From an uncultured Thermoleophilaceae bacterium (GTDB lineage: Bacteria; Actinomycetota; Thermoleophilia; Solirubrobacterales; Thermoleophilaceae), in assembly GCA_963828225.1 (NCBI GenBank), contig CAWHDX010000006.1, forward strand, positions 125,318-189,317: DNA of 64,000 nt, written 5' to 3'. The notes below the pieces were generated by a model. That model searched no databases. It was not told where the DNA came from and saw nothing but the letters and a program-made list of their open reading frames with translations. This document shows, piece after piece, positions 13,705 through 39,000 of this stretch; position 1 is the stretch's first letter; every line of letters starts with the position of its first letter. A program made the position numbers and the translations under genes.

Positions 13705-13717
13705 ATAGCCTGAGCCG

Positions 13718-15135
13718 ATGCGCGAAGTCAGTCCTGGCTCTGGCGGCGGTGATCTGCCTCTGCGCGGCCGGCTCGGCATCGGCCGCCGCTCCGCAGCTGG
13801 AGGTCGACGGCAAGCGCCTCGTGGACGCCGGCAGCGGCAAGACCTTCGTGCCGCGCGGCGTGAACTGGCCGAGCTTCGAGTACGCCTGCTACTACGGCTA
13901 CGCGTACTCGGACGAGGGCGATCCGAAGACCACCCACCCGACTGCCGCCAGCGCGCGCAAGATCGCGAGCTGGCACATCAACACCGTGCGGGTGCCGCTC
14001 AACGAGGCGTGCTGGCTGGGGGTGGACGGCCAGCCGGCGTTCGGCGACGTGGACGGCTACCGCGCGGCGGTGCAGAACTGGGTCACGCTGCTGCATCGCG
14101 CCGGTCTCGCGGTGATCCTCGACCTGCACTGGTCGGCGCCGCCGGGTGTCGGCGCCGAGGGCCAGCGCGCGATGCCGGACTCCCGGTCGCCCGCGTTCTG
14201 GACGTCGGTGGCGACCACGTTCAAGGACGATCGCGCGGTGATCTTCGACCTCTTCAACGAGCCCTACTCGCGCTACGACGACAACGACACGCTCGTGTTC
14301 GACCTGAGCTGGGACTGCTGGCTCGAAGGCGGCTGCACGCCGCCGGCCGTCAACGACGGCGAGCCGGTCAACGGCGCCACCTACCCGGCCACCGGGATGA
14401 GGGCGCTGGTCGAGGCCGTGCGCTCGGCGGGCGCCACCCAGCCGATCATGCTCGGCGGGCGCGACTACGCGAACGACCTCGGCGAGTGGCTCCAGCACCT
14501 GCCCGAGGACGACCAGCTCGTGGCGAGCTTCCACAACTACAAGGCGCAGGCGTGCAACACGACGGCGTGCTGGAACCGGACGATCGCGCCGGTCGCCGAG
14601 CAGGTGCCGGTGGTGACCGGCGAGTTCGGCGAGACCGACTGCAGGAGCTCGCACGTGAACAGCTACATGCGCTGGGCGGACAAGCGCGGCATCGGCTACC
14701 TCGCGTGGGCGTGGTGGGTGCTGCCCAAGAAGGGCTGCAAGGAGCTGTCGGTGCTCGCCGACCGAAGCGGCACGCCGAAGGCCCCCAACGGCACGGCGCT
14801 CAAGAGCCACCTCGCGGAGCTCGCCGGGCCGCGGATCTCGCTGAGCGGATCGGCGCGGCAGTCGCTCGACGGCGCGATCGAGGTCCAGGTGCGCTGCAGC
14901 AGGGCATGCCGCGTGCGGGCGGGCGGCACGCTCGCGCATCGGCGGCCAGAGCTTCAGGCTGCGCACGGCGTGCGCTCGCTGCCGGCCCGGCGCACCCGCA
15001 CGATCGCGGTGCGAATCCCGGGCAGCGCCGCGCGAGGCCGCGGCGTCGGCGCTGAGCGCCGGGCGGCGGGTGAGCGCAAGCGTCAAGGTCAGCGCCGGGG
15101 GCGCGACCAAGGTCCGCAGGATCCGGCTGACCTAG
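13718..15135 (+). pseudogene. secreted glycoside hydrolase family 5 (cellulase-like), probable frame breaks near 13724 and 15035
   Basis: The catalytic body lies in ORF 13749..16067 (NTVRVPLNE..., FDLFNEP, VVTGEFGE). ATG 13718 plus removal of one base gives signal peptide MRKSVLALAAVICLCAAGSASA. The C-terminal sense continues in another frame to TAG 15133-15135 (...RRVSASVKVSAGGATKVRRIRLT*). Confidence 0.75.
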
Positions 15136-32824: not shown

Positions 32825-34465
32825 ATGCCGATGCGCGCCGTCCCCCTCGTCCTGGCCACCATCCTGCTCGCGATCGTCGCGGCGCCGGGCGCGGCCGCTC
32901 CCGGCGACCTGGATACGTCCTTCGACGGCGACGGCGTGCGGACCGTCGACTGGGGCGGTGAGGCCGACGCAGCTCGGGACGTGCTGGTCCAGCCGGACGG
33001 CAAGATCGTGGTGGTGGGCACCGGCTTCGCCCCGCCCGTGGACATGGGAATCACTCGCCTCGCTCCCGACGGGAGCTTGGACAACGGCTTCAACGCCGAC
33101 GGCACCGCGTCGGTCGCGCTGGGGGACGTCGAGAACGGCAGCGCCGTGGCCATGGCGCCGGACGACAAGATCGTGACGGTAGGCCGGACGGCCGCGGGGC
33201 AGCGCGGGCTGGTCGCGCGCCATCTCCCGGACGGGACGCCGGACAACACCTTCGGGGTCGCCGGATCGATGACCCTGGAGTACGGCGGCGACGACAGCCT
33301 GCAGGACGTGGTGGTCCAGCCTGACAGCAAGATCGTGACGGTCGGCCAGGGCGGCGCCACGAACAACCTCGTCGTCACCCGCCTGATTGCGACGGGGCTG
33401 CCGGACGGGGCCTTCAACAGCGGCGCCGGCTCGGTGTCGTTCGACTTCGGCGCGATCGAAACCGGACAGGCGGTCGTCCTGCAGCCCGACGGCAAGATCC
33501 TCGCCGCCGGCAACACCAGCGCGGGCATGCAAGCGGCGGTCATCGTGCGCCTGAACGCGAACGGCACGCCGGACGCGAGCTTCGACGGGGACGGCCGCCT
33601 GACGGTCCCGGGCCCGGCGGGGAACGTCGTGCGGGACATGATGCTCCAGCCCGACGGCAAGATCGTGCTTGCGGGGTTCGTCAGCACGGACTTCACCGGG
33701 GGCGGCGTGTTTCGTGTGACTCGGCTCAACTCGGACGGGACGCTCGACAGCGGGTTCGGCACGAACGGCGCCGTCAGCTTCGCATTCAGCGATGAGGGCT
33801 TCGCGACCGCGGCAGCCCTGCTCGCCAACGGCAAGATCGTCATCACCGGCATGAACGGAAACCAGGCGGCGGTCGCGCGACTGCAGCCGGGCGGGACCCT
33901 CGACACCACCTTCGGGGCTGGCGGCAAGGCGAACGTCCCCGGGACCTTCGTCTTCCCGGAGGGGCTGGCGCTCCAGGCCAACGGGCGGATCATCCTCGCC
34001 GGCCGAAACCCGTTGGGAACACCGTGGGACGTGGCCATCGCCCGGATCGACAACGATTCGCCGGCCGCGGGCGGGGGCCCGGGCGGTGGCGGACCCGGTG
34101 GCGGACCCGGCGGCGGCGGCAAGTCGGTGCCGCGCTGCGCGGGCAAGCGCGCCACCATCGTCGGCTCGAACCGCTCAGACCGGCTCAAGGGCACGCGCCG
34201 CGCCGACGTGATCGTCGCCCTCGGCGGCAACGACCGGATCGCCGCCGGGCGCGGCAACGACGTCATCTGCGCCGGCAACGGCAACGACCGGATCGACGGC
34301 GGCTCCGGAAACGATCGCCTGTCCGGCGGCTCCGGAAACGACCGCCTCGCCGGCGGCTCCGGCAAGGACCGCCTGTCCGGCGAGACCGGCAAGGACAAGC
34401 TGATCGGCGGCTCGGGGCGCGACAAGCTCAGCGGCGGCCCGGGGCGCGACAGCCAGCAGCAGTAG
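32825..34465 (+). CDS. secreted delta-60-type beta-propeller repeat protein with Gly/Pro linker and C-terminal RTX (GGxGxDxLx) block
   Basis: ATG is preceded by GGAGGG. Signal peptide MPMRAVPLVLATILLAIVAAPGAAA. About eight repeats of the D.SF...G...QPDGKIV..G type, then GGNDRIAAGRGNDVI...GGSGNDRLSGGSGNDRLAGGSGKDRLS...SQQQ*. Confidence 0.8.
   Translation: MPMRAVPLVLATILLAIVAAPGAAAPGDLDTSFDGDGVRTVDWGGEADAARDVLVQPDGKIVVVGTGFAPPVDMGITRLAPDGSLDNGFNADGTASVALGDVENGSAVAMAPDDKIVTVGRTAAGQRGLVARHLPDGTPDNTFGVAGSMTLEYGGDDSLQDVVVQPDSKIVTVGQGGATNNLVVTRLIATGLPDGAFNSGAGSVSFDFGAIETGQAVVLQPDGKILAAGNTSAGMQAAVIVRLNANGTPDASFDGDGRLTVPGPAGNVVRDMMLQPDGKIVLAGFVSTDFTGGGVFRVTRLNSDGTLDSGFGTNGAVSFAFSDEGFATAAALLANGKIVITGMNGNQAAVARLQPGGTLDTTFGAGGKANVPGTFVFPEGLALQANGRIILAGRNPLGTPWDVAIARIDNDSPAAGGGPGGGGPGGGPGGGGKSVPRCAGKRATIVGSNRSDRLKGTRRADVIVALGGNDRIAAGRGNDVICAGNGNDRIDGGSGNDRLSGGSGNDRLAGGSGKDRLSGETGKDKLIGGSGRDKLSGGPGRDSQQQ
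34128..34465 (+). repeat. RTX-module direct repeat, copy 1 (pairs with 36860-37196)
   Basis: The 3' end of the gene is collinear with the 3' end of gene 35814..37196. I see only two differences in the last about 110 nt, and similarity stops at the TAG. Confidence 0.8.
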
Positions 34466-34474
34466 CAGGTCGGG

Positions 34475-34528
34475 GACAGCAGCCCGCCCATCACCGTGCC
34501 CCGGTGGTTCGCGTGCCGGCCCTCGGCG
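34475..34528 (-). pseudogene. fragment of a PaaI/hotdog thioesterase gene (paralogous to 38608..39000)
   Basis: GACAGCAGCCCGCCCATCACCGTGCCCCGGTGGTTCGCGTGCCGGCCCTCGGCG aligns with 38846-38899. By hand the first 20 nt are identical and about 84 percent overall. It encodes LAEGRHANHRGTVMGGLLS versus LAEERHANRRGTVMGGLLS. Confidence 0.7.
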
Positions 34529-34532
34529 AGTC

Positions 34533-35778: not shown

Positions 35779-35813
35779 TTTCGTCGCCGCGCCTGGTGCA
35801 CGACGCTCATCCC

Positions 35814-37196
35814 ATGCCCAGGGCCACCCTCCGCCGAGTATCGCTGACCGTGATCGCGCTGACCTGCGCCGGGGCGCCCGCCGTCCAGGCGGCGCCCGGC
35901 GGCGACGCCTTCGTCGAGGAGACGACCGTCTCGGTGCCGGCCATGGAGTCGGCATCGGCGGCCGCCGCTTGCCCGGACGGATCGCGCGTCGTGGGAGGCG
36001 GCGTGGACGCGATCGCCGGCTTCCTCTCACTCGACCGGTTCCCGGACTACGTCGTGCAGATGAGCGGGCCTGTCGACGACACCGGCTCCTGGGCGAACAC
36101 GGAGGACGGTGAGGTCGCGCGCCAGTGGCTCGCCTACTGGCGCAACTCGTCCACGCAGACCCTGGACTTCAAGGTCTTCGCGCTCTGCTCGCGCAGCTCC
36201 GACGCCACGATCGAGACGACGCGGCGCGACGGCGTGGCGAGCAGGACCGCCGCGCCCCTTGCGACGACGTGCCCATCGGGATCGCGCGTGGTGGGCGGCG
36301 GACTCGGGACGAACGGCCCGATGCCCACGGGGGAGGGAGGCAACACCTACGTGCTGCAGATGAGCGGACCCGTGGACGACACGGGCACGTTCATCTCCAC
36401 CGAGGACGGGGACGTCGCCCCCAGTTGGTGGACCTACGCGTTGAACCAATGGCTCGACCCGGTCGCGTACAAGGTCTTCGCGCTCTGCTCGCGCCAATCC
36501 GACGCCACCATCGAGGCGACCGCGTTCGAGCTGCCCACGGCGCTCTCGTTCGCGGGGGCCGCCGCCTGCCCCGCCGGGAAGCGGGTGCTGGGCGGCGGGG
36601 TCGGCTCGCACGGCCCCGCGCCGGGCGGAATGAACCTGAACTACATCGTCCAAGCGGCCGGCCCCGAGGACGAGACGGACTCCAGCCGAAACACCGTCGA
36701 CGGAGACGTCGCGCGACGCTTCTACGGCTACGTCGACAACCGCTCCGGGGCCACGCAGACATTCAAGGTGCTCGCGCTGTGCGCAACCGATGACATGCAG
36801 GCGGGCGGCGGCGGGCCGGGAGGCGGGCCGGGTGGCGGCGGGCCGGGAGGTGGCGACGGACCGCGCTGCGGCGGCAAGGTCGCCACGATCGTCGGCAGCA
36901 ACCGCTCGGAGCGCATCTCCGGCACCCGGCGGGCCGACGTGATCGTGGCGCTCGGCGGCAACGACCGCATCAAGGGCGGCCGCGGCAACGACGTCATCTG
37001 CGCCGGCAACGGCAACGACCGGATCGACGGCGGCAGCGGCAACGACCGCCTCGCCGGCGGCTCCGGAAACGACCGCCTCGCCGGCGGGTCCGGCAAGGAC
37101 CGCCTGTCCGGCCAGACCGGCAAGGACAAGCTGATCGGCGGCTCGGGGCGCGACAAGCTCAGCGGCGGCCCGGGGCGCGACAGCCAGCAGCAGTAG
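35814..37196 (+). CDS. secreted protein: three tandem Cys-bracketed repeats of about 100 aa, Gly/Pro linker, C-terminal RTX block
   Basis: Signal peptide MPRATLRRVSLTVIALTCAGAPAVQA. Each repeat runs CP.GSRVVGGG ... QMSGPVDDTG ... DG.VA..W ... FKVFALCSR. DNA period is exactly 300 nt between 36171 and 36471. The RTX tail is nearly identical to that of 32825..34465. Confidence 0.8.
   Translation: MPRATLRRVSLTVIALTCAGAPAVQAAPGGDAFVEETTVSVPAMESASAAAACPDGSRVVGGGVDAIAGFLSLDRFPDYVVQMSGPVDDTGSWANTEDGEVARQWLAYWRNSSTQTLDFKVFALCSRSSDATIETTRRDGVASRTAAPLATTCPSGSRVVGGGLGTNGPMPTGEGGNTYVLQMSGPVDDTGTFISTEDGDVAPSWWTYALNQWLDPVAYKVFALCSRQSDATIEATAFELPTALSFAGAAACPAGKRVLGGGVGSHGPAPGGMNLNYIVQAAGPEDETDSSRNTVDGDVARRFYGYVDNRSGATQTFKVLALCATDDMQAGGGGPGGGPGGGGPGGGDGPRCGGKVATIVGSNRSERISGTRRADVIVALGGNDRIKGGRGNDVICAGNGNDRIDGGSGNDRLAGGSGNDRLAGGSGKDRLSGQTGKDKLIGGSGRDKLSGGPGRDSQQQ
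36860..37196 (+). repeat. RTX-module direct repeat, copy 2 (pairs with 34128-34465)
   Basis: See copy 1. Both end ...GGSGRDKLSGGPGRDSQQQ*. Confidence 0.8.
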
Positions 37197-37284
37197 CCGG
37201 CGCGGCGACGCGCGGAGAAATTACGAGAGCGCCCTGCGGCTGCACGTCTTTCCTCGGCCAGGGCGGCTCAAGCTGTCTACGACT

Positions 37285-37331
37285 GATGGCGAGGGCCGGA
37301 ATCGAACCGGCGACACCACGATTTTCAGTCG
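37285..37331 (-). repeat. 47-nt perfect copy of the tRNA-Phe 3' half (anticodon loop to discriminator), att-like
   Basis: GATGGCGAGGGCCGGAATCGAACCGGCGACACCACGATTTTCAGTCG is identical to 38370-38416 in the same orientation. No 5' half is present. Confidence 0.85.
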
Positions 37332-37601
37332 AGGCCAGCGGTTGCGGCTGTTTGCGGTTTCTAGGCGTACAGCGGGACTGCGGCGCCTGGCACCCGAATG
37401 ATTTGCGGGGTTTCCGGGTGTCGTGTTGCCCAGCCGTTGCCCAGACCGGGCATAGCGGACCGCTCTCGCGTTGCATGGAAAGGAGCACTGCGCCCAAGAG
37501 CGAGAGCGCGTGCTGCTCGCAGGCGGATGCGAAAGATAGCTCCGGATGGTTCGAGCAGCGAGCGGCGCGTGGGGCAATGGCGCAGCATTTAGGCTGGCCG
37601 C

Positions 37602-38147
37602 ATGCGCAGACTCCGCCCCTCACCCGCCATGACCGTTGCTCTGATCGCCTTGTTCGTGTCGCTGGGAGGCACGGGCTACGCGGCGCTGAAGCTGCCGAGG
37701 AACAGCGTGGGACCGAGGCAGTTGCAGGCCAACAGCGTCACCTCGACCAAGGTGAAGCAGGGGTCGCTGGCGCTGAGCGACATCAGGTCGTCGGCCCGCA
37801 CCGGCCTGCGCGGACCGGAGGGGCCGCGCGGGGCGCAGGGCCCGCAGGGGCCGAGCGGGACGAGCAAGATCGTGATGCGCAAGGGATCGACGGGCTTCGC
37901 GGCGGCCAACGACTTCGGCACCGCCGACGCGTCGTGCAAGGCGGGCGAGCGCGCGACCGGGGGAGGGGCCATCCCGGCCAACCGGTTTTACCTGCGCGTT
38001 TCGGGCAGCTATCCGCTGCCGAACCCCGTGGCGGCCCCGTCGACCGGCGATGGCCTGACCCCGACCGGCTGGCGCGTCTTCGTGGTGAACGAGAACACGA
38101 CGACTGGCTTCGACTTCGAGGCGTACGTGATCTGCGCGTCGCCGTAG
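37602..38147 (+). CDS. membrane-anchored collagen-like protein carrying one Cys-bracketed domain
   Basis: N-terminal anchor MTVALIALFVSLGGTGYAA and Gly-X-Y run GLRGPEGPRGAQGPQGPSG. The C-terminal CKAGERATGGG...W...FEAYVICASP matches the repeat unit of 35814..37196. Confidence 0.75.
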   Translation: MRRLRPSPAMTVALIALFVSLGGTGYAALKLPRNSVGPRQLQANSVTSTKVKQGSLALSDIRSSARTGLRGPEGPRGAQGPQGPSGTSKIVMRKGSTGFAAANDFGTADASCKAGERATGGGAIPANRFYLRVSGSYPLPNPVAAPSTGDGLTPTGWRVFVVNENTTTGFDFEAYVICASP

Positions 38148-38154
38148 GAGGTGA

Positions 38155-38197
38155 TAGCTCCGGATGGATTCGAACCATCGACCTCACGATTATGAGT
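38155..38197 (-). pseudogene. tRNA-Met(CAT)-like 3' half only
   Basis: The reverse complement ACTCATAATCGTGAGGTCGATGGTTCGAATCCATCCGGAGCTA has a CAT anticodon loop, T arm and acceptor 3' strand. No matching 5' half is present. Confidence 0.7.
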
Positions 38198-38371
38198 TGA
38201 GGCTGGTGGTTGCGGCTGTTGGTGGTTGCTAGGCCCAGCGCGTGATCGGGCCGGGGAGGCGGACCCTCCTTCCCGGGCTAGGCTGCGCCGGTGCCGGTCT
38301 GGGGGTGGATCGCGGTCGGGCGAGTCGCGGGTCGCAGCGGAGAATCGAACGGCTTGCAGGCATTTCGTCGA

Positions 38372-38444
38372 TGGCGAGGGCCGGAATCGAACCGGCGACA
38401 CCACGATTTTCAGTCGTGTGCTCTACCAACTGAGCTACCTCGCC
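38372..38444 (-). tRNA. tRNA-Phe (anticodon GAA)
   Basis: The reverse complement GGCGAGGTAGCTCAGTTGGTAGAGCACACGACTGAAAATCGTGGTGTCGCCGGTTCGATTCCGGCCCTCGCCA folds as a 73-nt cloverleaf. CCA is not encoded. Confidence 0.95.
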
Positions 38445-38607
38445 GCGCACCGCGCAGCCTAGCGGCGAAGCGCATTTTGGCGAGTTGTCCGGCCTATGGA
38501 CCGGATAACGCAACACGAATCGCGGCGGCGCGGACGTTCACGTTGCGTTTCACCCCCTGGAGGGGGGCAAACGCAGCAAGAATCGAAGGGCGCCAGGGCG
38601 CGCGCCC

Positions 38608-39000
38608 TCAGCCCACCACCACGAACACCGCCCGCGCGCGCACGATCTCCGTGTCGCCGACGCTCAGCACGCAGTCCGCGAACGACAGCGTGCGGCCGAC
38701 GCGGTCGACGCCGGTGCGCGCTTCGATCCAGTCGCCCGGCTCCGCGGGCTTCAGGTAGTCGACCGTCAGGCTGACCGTCGCGCGCTCGTGGTCGTCGGTC
38801 GCATCGGCCTCGATCGCCCGCCCCAGCGCGAAGTCGGCCAGCGTCGACAGCAGCCCGCCCATCACGGTCCCGCGGCGGTTGGCGTGCCGCTCCTCGGCCA
38901 GCAGCCCCAGCACCGCCTGATCTCCGTCCGAGCGGACGTGGATCGGGCCGACGTGCTCCAGGAACGGGCCCTGCCCCGGAAAAGGCGAGAAGCCCTCGGG
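38608..39000 (-). CDS. PaaI-family (hotdog fold) thioesterase; start codon not resolved
   Basis: C-terminal part of track ORF 38608..39660: IPEGFSPFPGQGPFLEHVGPIHV...HANRRGTVMGGLLSTLADFALG...LTVDYLKPA. There is no canonical start just upstream of IPEGF. Confidence 0.7.
   Translation of the reverse strand, partial: PEGFSPFPGQGPFLEHVGPIHVRSDGDQAVLGLLAEERHANRRGTVMGGLLSTLADFALGRAIEADATDDHERATVSLTVDYLKPAEPGDWIEARTGVDRVGRTLSFADCVLSVGDTEIVRARAVFVVVG

Follow-up and report, generated by a model that had tools for sequence, protein, structure and literature searches.

A 47-nt repeat of the tRNA-Phe 3′ half in an uncultured Thermoleophilaceae bacterium as the probable scar of a decayed tyrosine-integrase element

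The locus described here raises a simple question, namely why the 3′ part of a tRNA-Phe gene should occur twice, without a single difference, at the two ends of a segment of about 1.04 kb that holds no integrase. The window, by which we mean the whole stretch of 64,000 nucleotides that was analysed, is part of contig 6 of a MAG of 3.5 Mb (60% complete, 7 contigs), and the names carried by the homologues and the related contigs are those of Thermoleophilaceae. In our reading, the two copies are very probably the attL and attR cores that were left when an element encoding a tyrosine integrase integrated site-specifically at tRNA-Phe, and that element has since decayed.

The repeat itself is exact: positions 37285–37331 match 38370–38416 in direct orientation over 47/47 nt, as the earlier note had it, and the match ends abruptly, with zero further identical bases at either edge. 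When up to 3 mismatches are allowed, the window contains 2 copies, against 0 in 100 dinucleotide shuffles. In tRNA coordinates the repeat starts at position 29, with the last 3 bases of the 5′ strand of the anticodon stem, runs through the discriminator at position 73 and takes in two trailer bases (38370–38371); the earlier note had placed it correctly through the discriminator and had counted one flanking base where there are two. The sole tRNA that ARAGORN calls in the 64 kb is tRNA-Phe(GAA) on the minus strand, and the search with Rfam (E ≤ 1, 36900–38700) matches this gene alone, so that 37285–37331 is a fragment rather than a second gene, and the claim of a single complete tRNA at this place holds. 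No further tRNA-Phe is found in the assembled part of this 60%-complete genome. The arrangement is that of an attL/attR scar, in which the 3′ part of the tRNA is directly repeated and one of the copies belongs to the intact gene:

37285–37331, minus strand: displaced 3′ half of tRNA-Phe, attR-like core (47/47 to 38370–38416; no tRNA score)
38370–38416, minus strand: near-end attachment core, attL-like, being the 3′ part of the intact tRNA-Phe
38372–38444, minus strand: intact tRNA-Phe(GAA) (ARAGORN; Rfam, 75.9 bits)

Between the two copies lie 1,038 nt (37332–38369). The part that adjoins the displaced copy carries three pairs of short direct repeats, which we call the P arm, and the part that adjoins the intact gene is a short spacer:

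37332–37444, no strand assigned: P arm with three pairs of direct repeats, in the same layout as in 13 aligned arms and in integrase-bearing elements
37340–37357: first pair, TTGCGG twice
37402–37418: second pair, TTGCGG and TTCCGG
37425–37444: third pair, GTTGCCC twice
37361–37500, minus strand: tentatively, the probable relic of the tail of an integrase gene (last ~45 codons), suggested by a shared stop position
38246–38369, no strand assigned: spacer of 124 nt adjoining tRNA-Phe, without the GTTGCCC/GTTGACC pair of a P′ arm

An arm of this type lies beside displaced tRNA-Phe halves in four other places (G199, G023, G020:C14 and L172) and beside elongator tRNA-Met halves in three (G201, G166 and G173); it also accompanies the half of a second tRNA with a CAT anticodon (L133), of an initiator-type tRNA-Met (fMet; G196), of tRNA-Lys(CTT) (G024) and, probably, of tRNA-Cys (G192). 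The alignment comprises 13 sequences from Thermoleophilaceae/Solirubrobacterales genomes, next to six different tRNA 3′ halves, in which the window arm is aligned with 12 others and with arms that abut an integrase, and this identifies the DNA beside the displaced copy as element-derived. The layout is constant: the core is followed after ~10 nt by TTGCGG twice (10-nt spacing), after a further 45–60 nt by a second TTGCGG-like pair and, ~8 nt beyond it, by GTTGCCC twice (11-nt spacing). Direct-repeat pairs that are placed about one helical turn apart and conserved beside different cores suggest that all three are putative arm-type binding sites of the integrase. It may also be relevant that tRNA-Phe and tRNA-Met of this genome have an identical anticodon stem (CACGA/TCGTG) and differ at 2/7 loop positions, which may explain how one family of arms serves both targets. 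At the DNA level the similarity of the window arm to that of G020:C14 reaches 37486, and this is also the only arm-bearing genome with which the window has its right flank in common, when the flanks on the two sides are compared as a test of vertical inheritance. A phage origin was considered as well; the search of IMG/VR with the arm motifs gave six matches, all of them low-GC chance matches without tRNA halves, and this possibility was rejected.

Complete elements with the same architecture were found in related genomes. In G173, a tyrosine integrase of 442 aa ends inside the arm, ~50 nt from the displaced tRNA-Met half, and with this protein as query 17 homologous integrases were recovered from Thermoleophilaceae/Solirubrobacterales MAGs. 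A displaced tRNA-Phe half follows the integrase, at a distance of 82 nt to ~3 kb, in 10 of the 17 loci, and in five of these ten (L235, L239, L240, L241 and L247) an intact tRNA-Phe stands 8–10 kb upstream in the same orientation, so that the order is tRNA-Phe, an element of 8–12 kb, integrase, arm and displaced half. The earlier note had proposed a search for full-length islands with tyrosine integrases at this tRNA, and these islands answer it, with the arm architecture of the window. For L247 and L242 the arm can be aligned with that of the window through all three pairs, while the L235 group keeps the three-pair layout with TTTCGG and GTTGACC as variant motifs. The genes of the L235 element specify a TrwC relaxase-helicase of 1040 aa, HTH proteins, an AbiEi/AbiEii pair and an integrase that combines PF00589 with a SAM-like N-terminal domain, a gene content that marks the family as integrative and mobilisable or conjugative and not obviously phage. 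At the other end, the P′ regions of L247, L235, L239–L241 and G199 contain a GTTGCCC/GTTGACC pair. Two of the integrase matches (L247:10001–11139 and L242:649–1803) do not remain in a single open frame and are either pseudogenes or genes with long-read frameshift errors. Integrase remnants also lie beside tRNA-Phe in G020:C3 and G002, in a different layout, with the integrase adjoining the intact tRNA and no conserved arm; these do not belong to the family of the window element.

The comparison of 41 genomes of the genus and order, nearly all of which contain tRNA-Phe, shows that the site has been used repeatedly. A displaced 3′ half is found 1.4 to ~38 kb downstream of the tRNA-Phe 3′ end in 12 or more other genomes, and the cargo that separates the two is different in every relative: examples are TetR/DUF389/DUF6653/SnoaL, an MFS transporter with a dehydrogenase, a CAAX protease, chromate and MFS transporters, ABC/PPK2, RibD_C with a methyltransferase, and two SnoaL genes. 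The start of the repeat falls at tRNA positions 19–49 in 16 comparable loci, and at positions 27–32 in 12 of them. The right flank of the window (39004 onward, beyond the 5′ end of tRNA-Phe) shows synteny with four relatives; the left flank, on the 3′ side, does not. In two related loci the outer edge of the core is the exact point from which homology extends through the tRNA into the upstream flank, with no similarity on the island side, a break that is the signature of site-specific insertion at a tRNA 3′ half. Presence and content thus vary among the species-level relatives compared, and synteny is lost at the core. Arm homology, integrase-bearing relatives and variable cargo all support the earlier proposal that the repeat is the footprint of an element integrated at tRNA-Phe. 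That proposal had also named a partial copy of unvarying content in all relatives as the sign of an old fixed duplication, and no such constancy is seen, either in distance or in cargo.

These results bear directly on a non-mobile origin. That the tRNA 3′ half was duplicated locally long ago, by unequal crossing-over or replication slippage, and became fixed in the lineage without any mobile element would account for the missing integrase and, if the duplication were recent or followed by gene conversion, for a perfect copy, and yet it is scarcely credible, for the copy is joined to an arm of 110–150 nt that recurs beside other tRNA halves and integrases elsewhere, the content between copy and gene is different in every relative, and the boundary at position 29 matches those at 31–32 in integrase-bearing elements.

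The perfect identity of the two copies, which the earlier note considered notable, carries less information than it seems to. The tRNA-Phe of six or more further species of the genus is 100% identical over 71–80 nt, while the flanking genes of these species are 80–88% identical to those of the window, and an element arriving from a related host would consequently bring an identical 3′ half. Across the 16 comparable loci the displaced copy differs from its own tRNA by 0–8 positions, and this number is unrelated to the presence of an integrase (0–5 mismatches in integrase-bearing and 0–8 in integrase-less elements), for which reason perfect identity was rejected as a weak sign of recency. From the 47/47 match it follows only that, barring gene conversion, the displaced copy has diverged neutrally by no more than a few percent; the match is compatible with a fairly recent event and does not prove one.

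An artefact of assembly was also considered, in which the tRNA-Phe regions of two strains would have been joined through the 47 nt common to both. The genome is a MAG, 60% complete and in 7 contigs, and another MAG of the genus carries two tRNA-Phe loci from different organisms, with 88% identical flanks, so that such a chimera is conceivable in principle. It is nevertheless highly improbable, since the same architecture of gene, island, arm and displaced half recurs in many independent assemblies, including single-contig chromosomes, and a chimera would not produce the junction of arm and half with the expected polarity.

The MAG with two loci is G020, where C14 (L032) and C3 (L033) have the same upstream synteny and different islands downstream. 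With flanks only 88% identical, the two were rejected as strain variants, and two species are binned together. In comparison with L032, the window has ~22 kb between the homologue of the left flank (window 13705–14996) and the displaced Phe half, and the accessory region accordingly reaches well beyond the att pair. This stretch of the window (~15000–37284) encodes katG and secreted RTX/DUF5122 proteins, and no further Phe fragment is detectable in it. In a search for contigs of the same species, an exact 23-nt pattern from the left flank found no match in the JGI metagenome contigs.

What the segment contains today is a single gene, fragments of a second tRNA and part of a second arm, as follows:

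37602–38147, plus strand: collagen-like cargo gene (181 aa), the only credible ORF in the segment
37535–37554, minus strand: 20-nt relic of a tRNA-Met 3′ end (20/21 to 38153–38173, with one gap)
38148–38197, minus strand: 3′ half of tRNA-Met(CAT) with 7 trailer bases, a Met-type att core (50/50 to C7:30907–30956)
38199–38245, no strand assigned: truncated Met-type P arm, retaining the first pair only (38208–38225), homologous to 37332–37377

The collagen-like gene (third-position GC 0.92) encodes a membrane-anchored protein in which a short Gly-X-Y stretch of the collagen type is accompanied by a C-terminal domain bracketed by Cys; this protein has no Pfam match. It has 606 homologues, of which those with names belong to Thermoleophilaceae/Solirubrobacteraceae, and the nearest is 54% identical; about 9 paralogues are encoded in its own genome, and in a set of 5.8 billion proteins the protein of the window itself comes from one contig only.

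On both sides of this gene, and within the tRNA-Phe pair, lie direct repeats derived from tRNA-Met. The longer one, 50/50 identical to the tRNA-Met locus that ARAGORN calls at C7:30907–30956 in the same genome, is not scored as a tRNA itself by ARAGORN or Rfam, and with its 7-nt trailer it is unmatched at such length and identity in the other genomes searched. The shorter one comprises the 3′ strand of the T arm, the acceptor, the discriminator and 2 more bases, and its 15-mer core has three copies only in the genome, at 37535–37554, at 38153 and in the real tRNA-Met. The Met-derived pair is a second attachment scar, nested in the first. Since the cargo gene stands between Met repeats, with an incomplete arm of the element family beside one of them, the remnants at this locus come from no fewer than two generations of related elements. 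The nesting may have arisen when related elements resident together recombined, or when an accreted composite was excised.

Two of the collagen-like paralogues in the same genome (C2:238811–240164 and C1:728351–729133) lie less than 400 nt from tRNA-Ser(GGA) and from a 64-nt tRNA-Pro-like call. Beside the C2 paralogue stands a RibD_C gene that shares 94% identity with one from the tRNA-Phe island of G016 (L039:4876–5488); this value is well above the 80–88% usual for shared genes and suggests that island cargo has recently been exchanged across species and across tRNA sites. The window segment shows that the genes for collagen-like surface proteins of these organisms move as island cargo.

The absence of an integrase from the bracketed DNA, to which the earlier note had ascribed only the collagen-like gene and tRNA debris, was confirmed for 37332–38369 by Pfam, by a six-frame search of the genome with PF00589 and by tblastn. 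The island holds neither an integrase of its own, as a functional IME/ICE or prophage does, nor any relaxase, transfer or phage structural gene, and its only ORF is the collagen-like gene. What may remain of the integrase gene is its tail. A minus-strand ORF of 75 codons (37361–37588) ends at a stop (CTA on the plus strand, 37361–37363) that is common to several other arms, and this shared position, between the first and the second pair of the arm, is where the integrases of G173 and L234 stop. The tail of the window ORF has only a GN..AT stretch in common with the integrase tails, and this stretch is encoded by the third pair. Hence the minus strand at 37361–37500 might, at best tentatively, be regarded as a probable relic of the C-terminal codons. 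Upstream of ~37500 nothing like the catalytic domain was found by tblastn with two integrases of the family (E < 1), and a larger integrase remnant inside the island was rejected, since tblastn is blank and the 75-codon ORF shares only the residues that the motif encodes.

The following course of events would account for these observations. An element with a tyrosine integrase would have integrated into the segment of tRNA-Phe that extends from the anticodon loop to the 3′ end, supplying a replacement 3′ half by which the gene stayed intact (38372–38444); the original 3′ half of the host would then have been displaced to the far end (37285–37331), with the P arm of the element beside it (37332–37444). 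The source would be a family whose complete members are integrative mobilisable or conjugative elements of 8–12 kb in Thermoleophilaceae/Solirubrobacterales, built in the order tRNA, P′ arm, cargo including the TrwC relaxase, regulators, integrase, P arm and displaced tRNA half. Integrase, relaxase and the sites of the P′ arm would later have been lost at this locus, leaving scar DNA and one cargo gene between the cores. We infer both this order of events and the loss of mobility.

Whether the segment could still move is the point on which the most serious alternative turns. The far-end site is complete, with the core and all three repeat pairs. At the near end the P′ repeat pair is absent from the 124 nt next to the tRNA and from the rest of the assembled genome, and ~18 nt of this spacer, beside the core, are common to G023 and G039. 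No family integrase is encoded in the assembled 60% of the genome, where the best matches are a Xer-like gene (31% identity) and an integrase of 388 aa. With the integrase gone and the P′ pair missing on the tRNA-proximal side, the most likely reading of the segment is a dead scar rather than a mobilisable cassette, as far as its sequence allows this to be judged; as the MAG is just 60% complete, a cognate integrase could lie in the missing part.

It could be, instead, that the segment is a still-mobilisable, integrase-less cassette of the CIME type, whose 47-nt cores would be recombined by an integrase encoded elsewhere or brought in by a related element, moving the collagen-like gene, with the tRNA-Phe site as a capture platform for small cassettes. 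The complete far-end arm and the two perfect cores agree with this, as do six or more further islands that have this arm and are small, integrase-less and different in cargo (G199, G023, G020:C14, L172, G166 and L133), among which G199 retains repeat motifs on both arms; the position of collagen-like paralogues close to tRNA genes or fragments (less than 400 nt away) at two further loci of the genome points the same way, and so many integrase-less relatives could reflect something besides independent decay. Against it stand the near end of the window segment, from which the family P′ pair is missing, an assembled genome whose closest recombinase is the Xer-like one, and the lack of correlation, among relatives, between repeat identity and the possession of an integrase. 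Moreover, serial decay, combined with turnover where new elements insert, at the end with the intact tRNA, accounts for the integrase-less islands and gives the same pattern without a new mechanism; the P′ arms of these islands align too poorly to be informative (41% mean column identity). We therefore regard the mobilisable cassette as unlikely. Its generalisation, according to which the small arm-bearing islands of seven genomes, at tRNA-Phe and tRNA-Met, would be att-flanked cassettes moved in trans and the tRNA 3′ end an integron-like capture platform in Thermoleophilia, is to our mind improbable too; if true, the nested Met-in-Phe scars would record the shuffling of cassettes between two tRNAs with the same anticodon stem.

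The decayed-element reading places the locus among well-known systems. In actinomycete integrative elements such as pSAM2, SLP1 and pMEA300, and with an attP of the mycobacteriophage L5 type, a tyrosine integrase acts on an att identity of ~40–60 nt that begins in the anticodon loop and reaches the 3′ end of the tRNA; the integrase gene adjoins attP, and arm-type sites are present as direct repeats. In Streptomyces AICEs an FtsK-like transfer protein is typical. The family described here likewise has a tyrosine integrase and an att segment from the anticodon loop to the 3′ end, whereas, unlike the Streptomyces AICEs, the complete relatives of the window element carry a TrwC-type relaxase-helicase and their arm motifs are specific to the family.

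A second comparison is with genomic islands in tRNA genes, which are bounded by a regenerated tRNA and a displaced fragment (Islander; PMC4383910), and with tRNA fragments as attR sites (PMC9897764). As in islands of the Islander type, the repeat of the window is a tRNA 3′ part that starts in the anticodon stem-loop, the intact gene lies at one end and the fragment at the other, and the content varies between relatives. It differs from them in its lack of an integrase and in its size, 1.04 kb being far under that of typical islands, and a search of this type that requires an integrase presumably misses the segment for the former reason.

There is also a correspondence in form with CIMEs, decayed elements that have kept attL and attR and have lost the genes for integration and transfer, described in streptococcal ICE/IME systems (PMC5704250) and listed in ICEberg 2.0 (PMC6323972). 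Like them, the window segment is without integrase and relaxase, is flanked by an att core on each side and occupies a tRNA 3′ end at which related elements integrate repeatedly, and its nested and tandem scars suggest accretion, as in CIMEs. It departs from them in the tRNA-proximal arm, which is without the family repeat pair, so that attL may be incomplete, and from the streptococcal examples in its host, an actinomycetote of the class Thermoleophilia. The definition of a CIME would fit the segment in form, with mobilisability putative.

Taken alone, the segment is an ordinary fossil of horizontal gene transfer, of a common and well-known kind, here with an anatomy that is unusually easy to read. 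Its wider interest lies in what it led to, that is, an element family so far undescribed, with a defined att anatomy of core, three repeat pairs and an integrase that abuts the arm, and a tRNA-Phe gene that is an integration hot spot in Thermoleophilaceae, a poorly studied soil lineage; the att anatomy could guide the annotation of islands and the design of genetic tools for these uncultured bacteria.

Several minor features of the window and the genome deserve mention. The RTX gene at 35796–37196 contains three tandem repeats of 300 nt (35956–36680; 63–90% identity), corresponding to three domains of ~100 aa. The stretch at 34419–34530 has counterparts at 37150–37200 and 38846–38901: two RTX genes agree at 98% over their final 51 nt, and directly after the stop of the first lies a 56-nt copy of part of the thioesterase gene on the other side of tRNA-Phe; the earlier note had put the identity of this thioesterase relic at ~84%, and the relic is real, with 86% between 34475–34530 and 38846–38901. 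Together, the RTX end and the thioesterase piece look like a collapsed duplicate of the interval from RTX end to thioesterase, without the tRNA and the island. Between tRNA-Phe and the thioesterase gene, ~50 nt (38535–38585) that contain a C5/G6 hairpin form a small dispersed repeat, with 90–95% copies at C1:742362, C1:589070 and C7:626517. Finally, at C1:604186–605815 of the same genome, tRNA-Pro(TGG) and tRNA-Arg(TCT) are followed, at most 450 nt away, by a frame of 388 aa with a tyrosine-integrase domain (38.9 bits), which is probably another tRNA-linked element.
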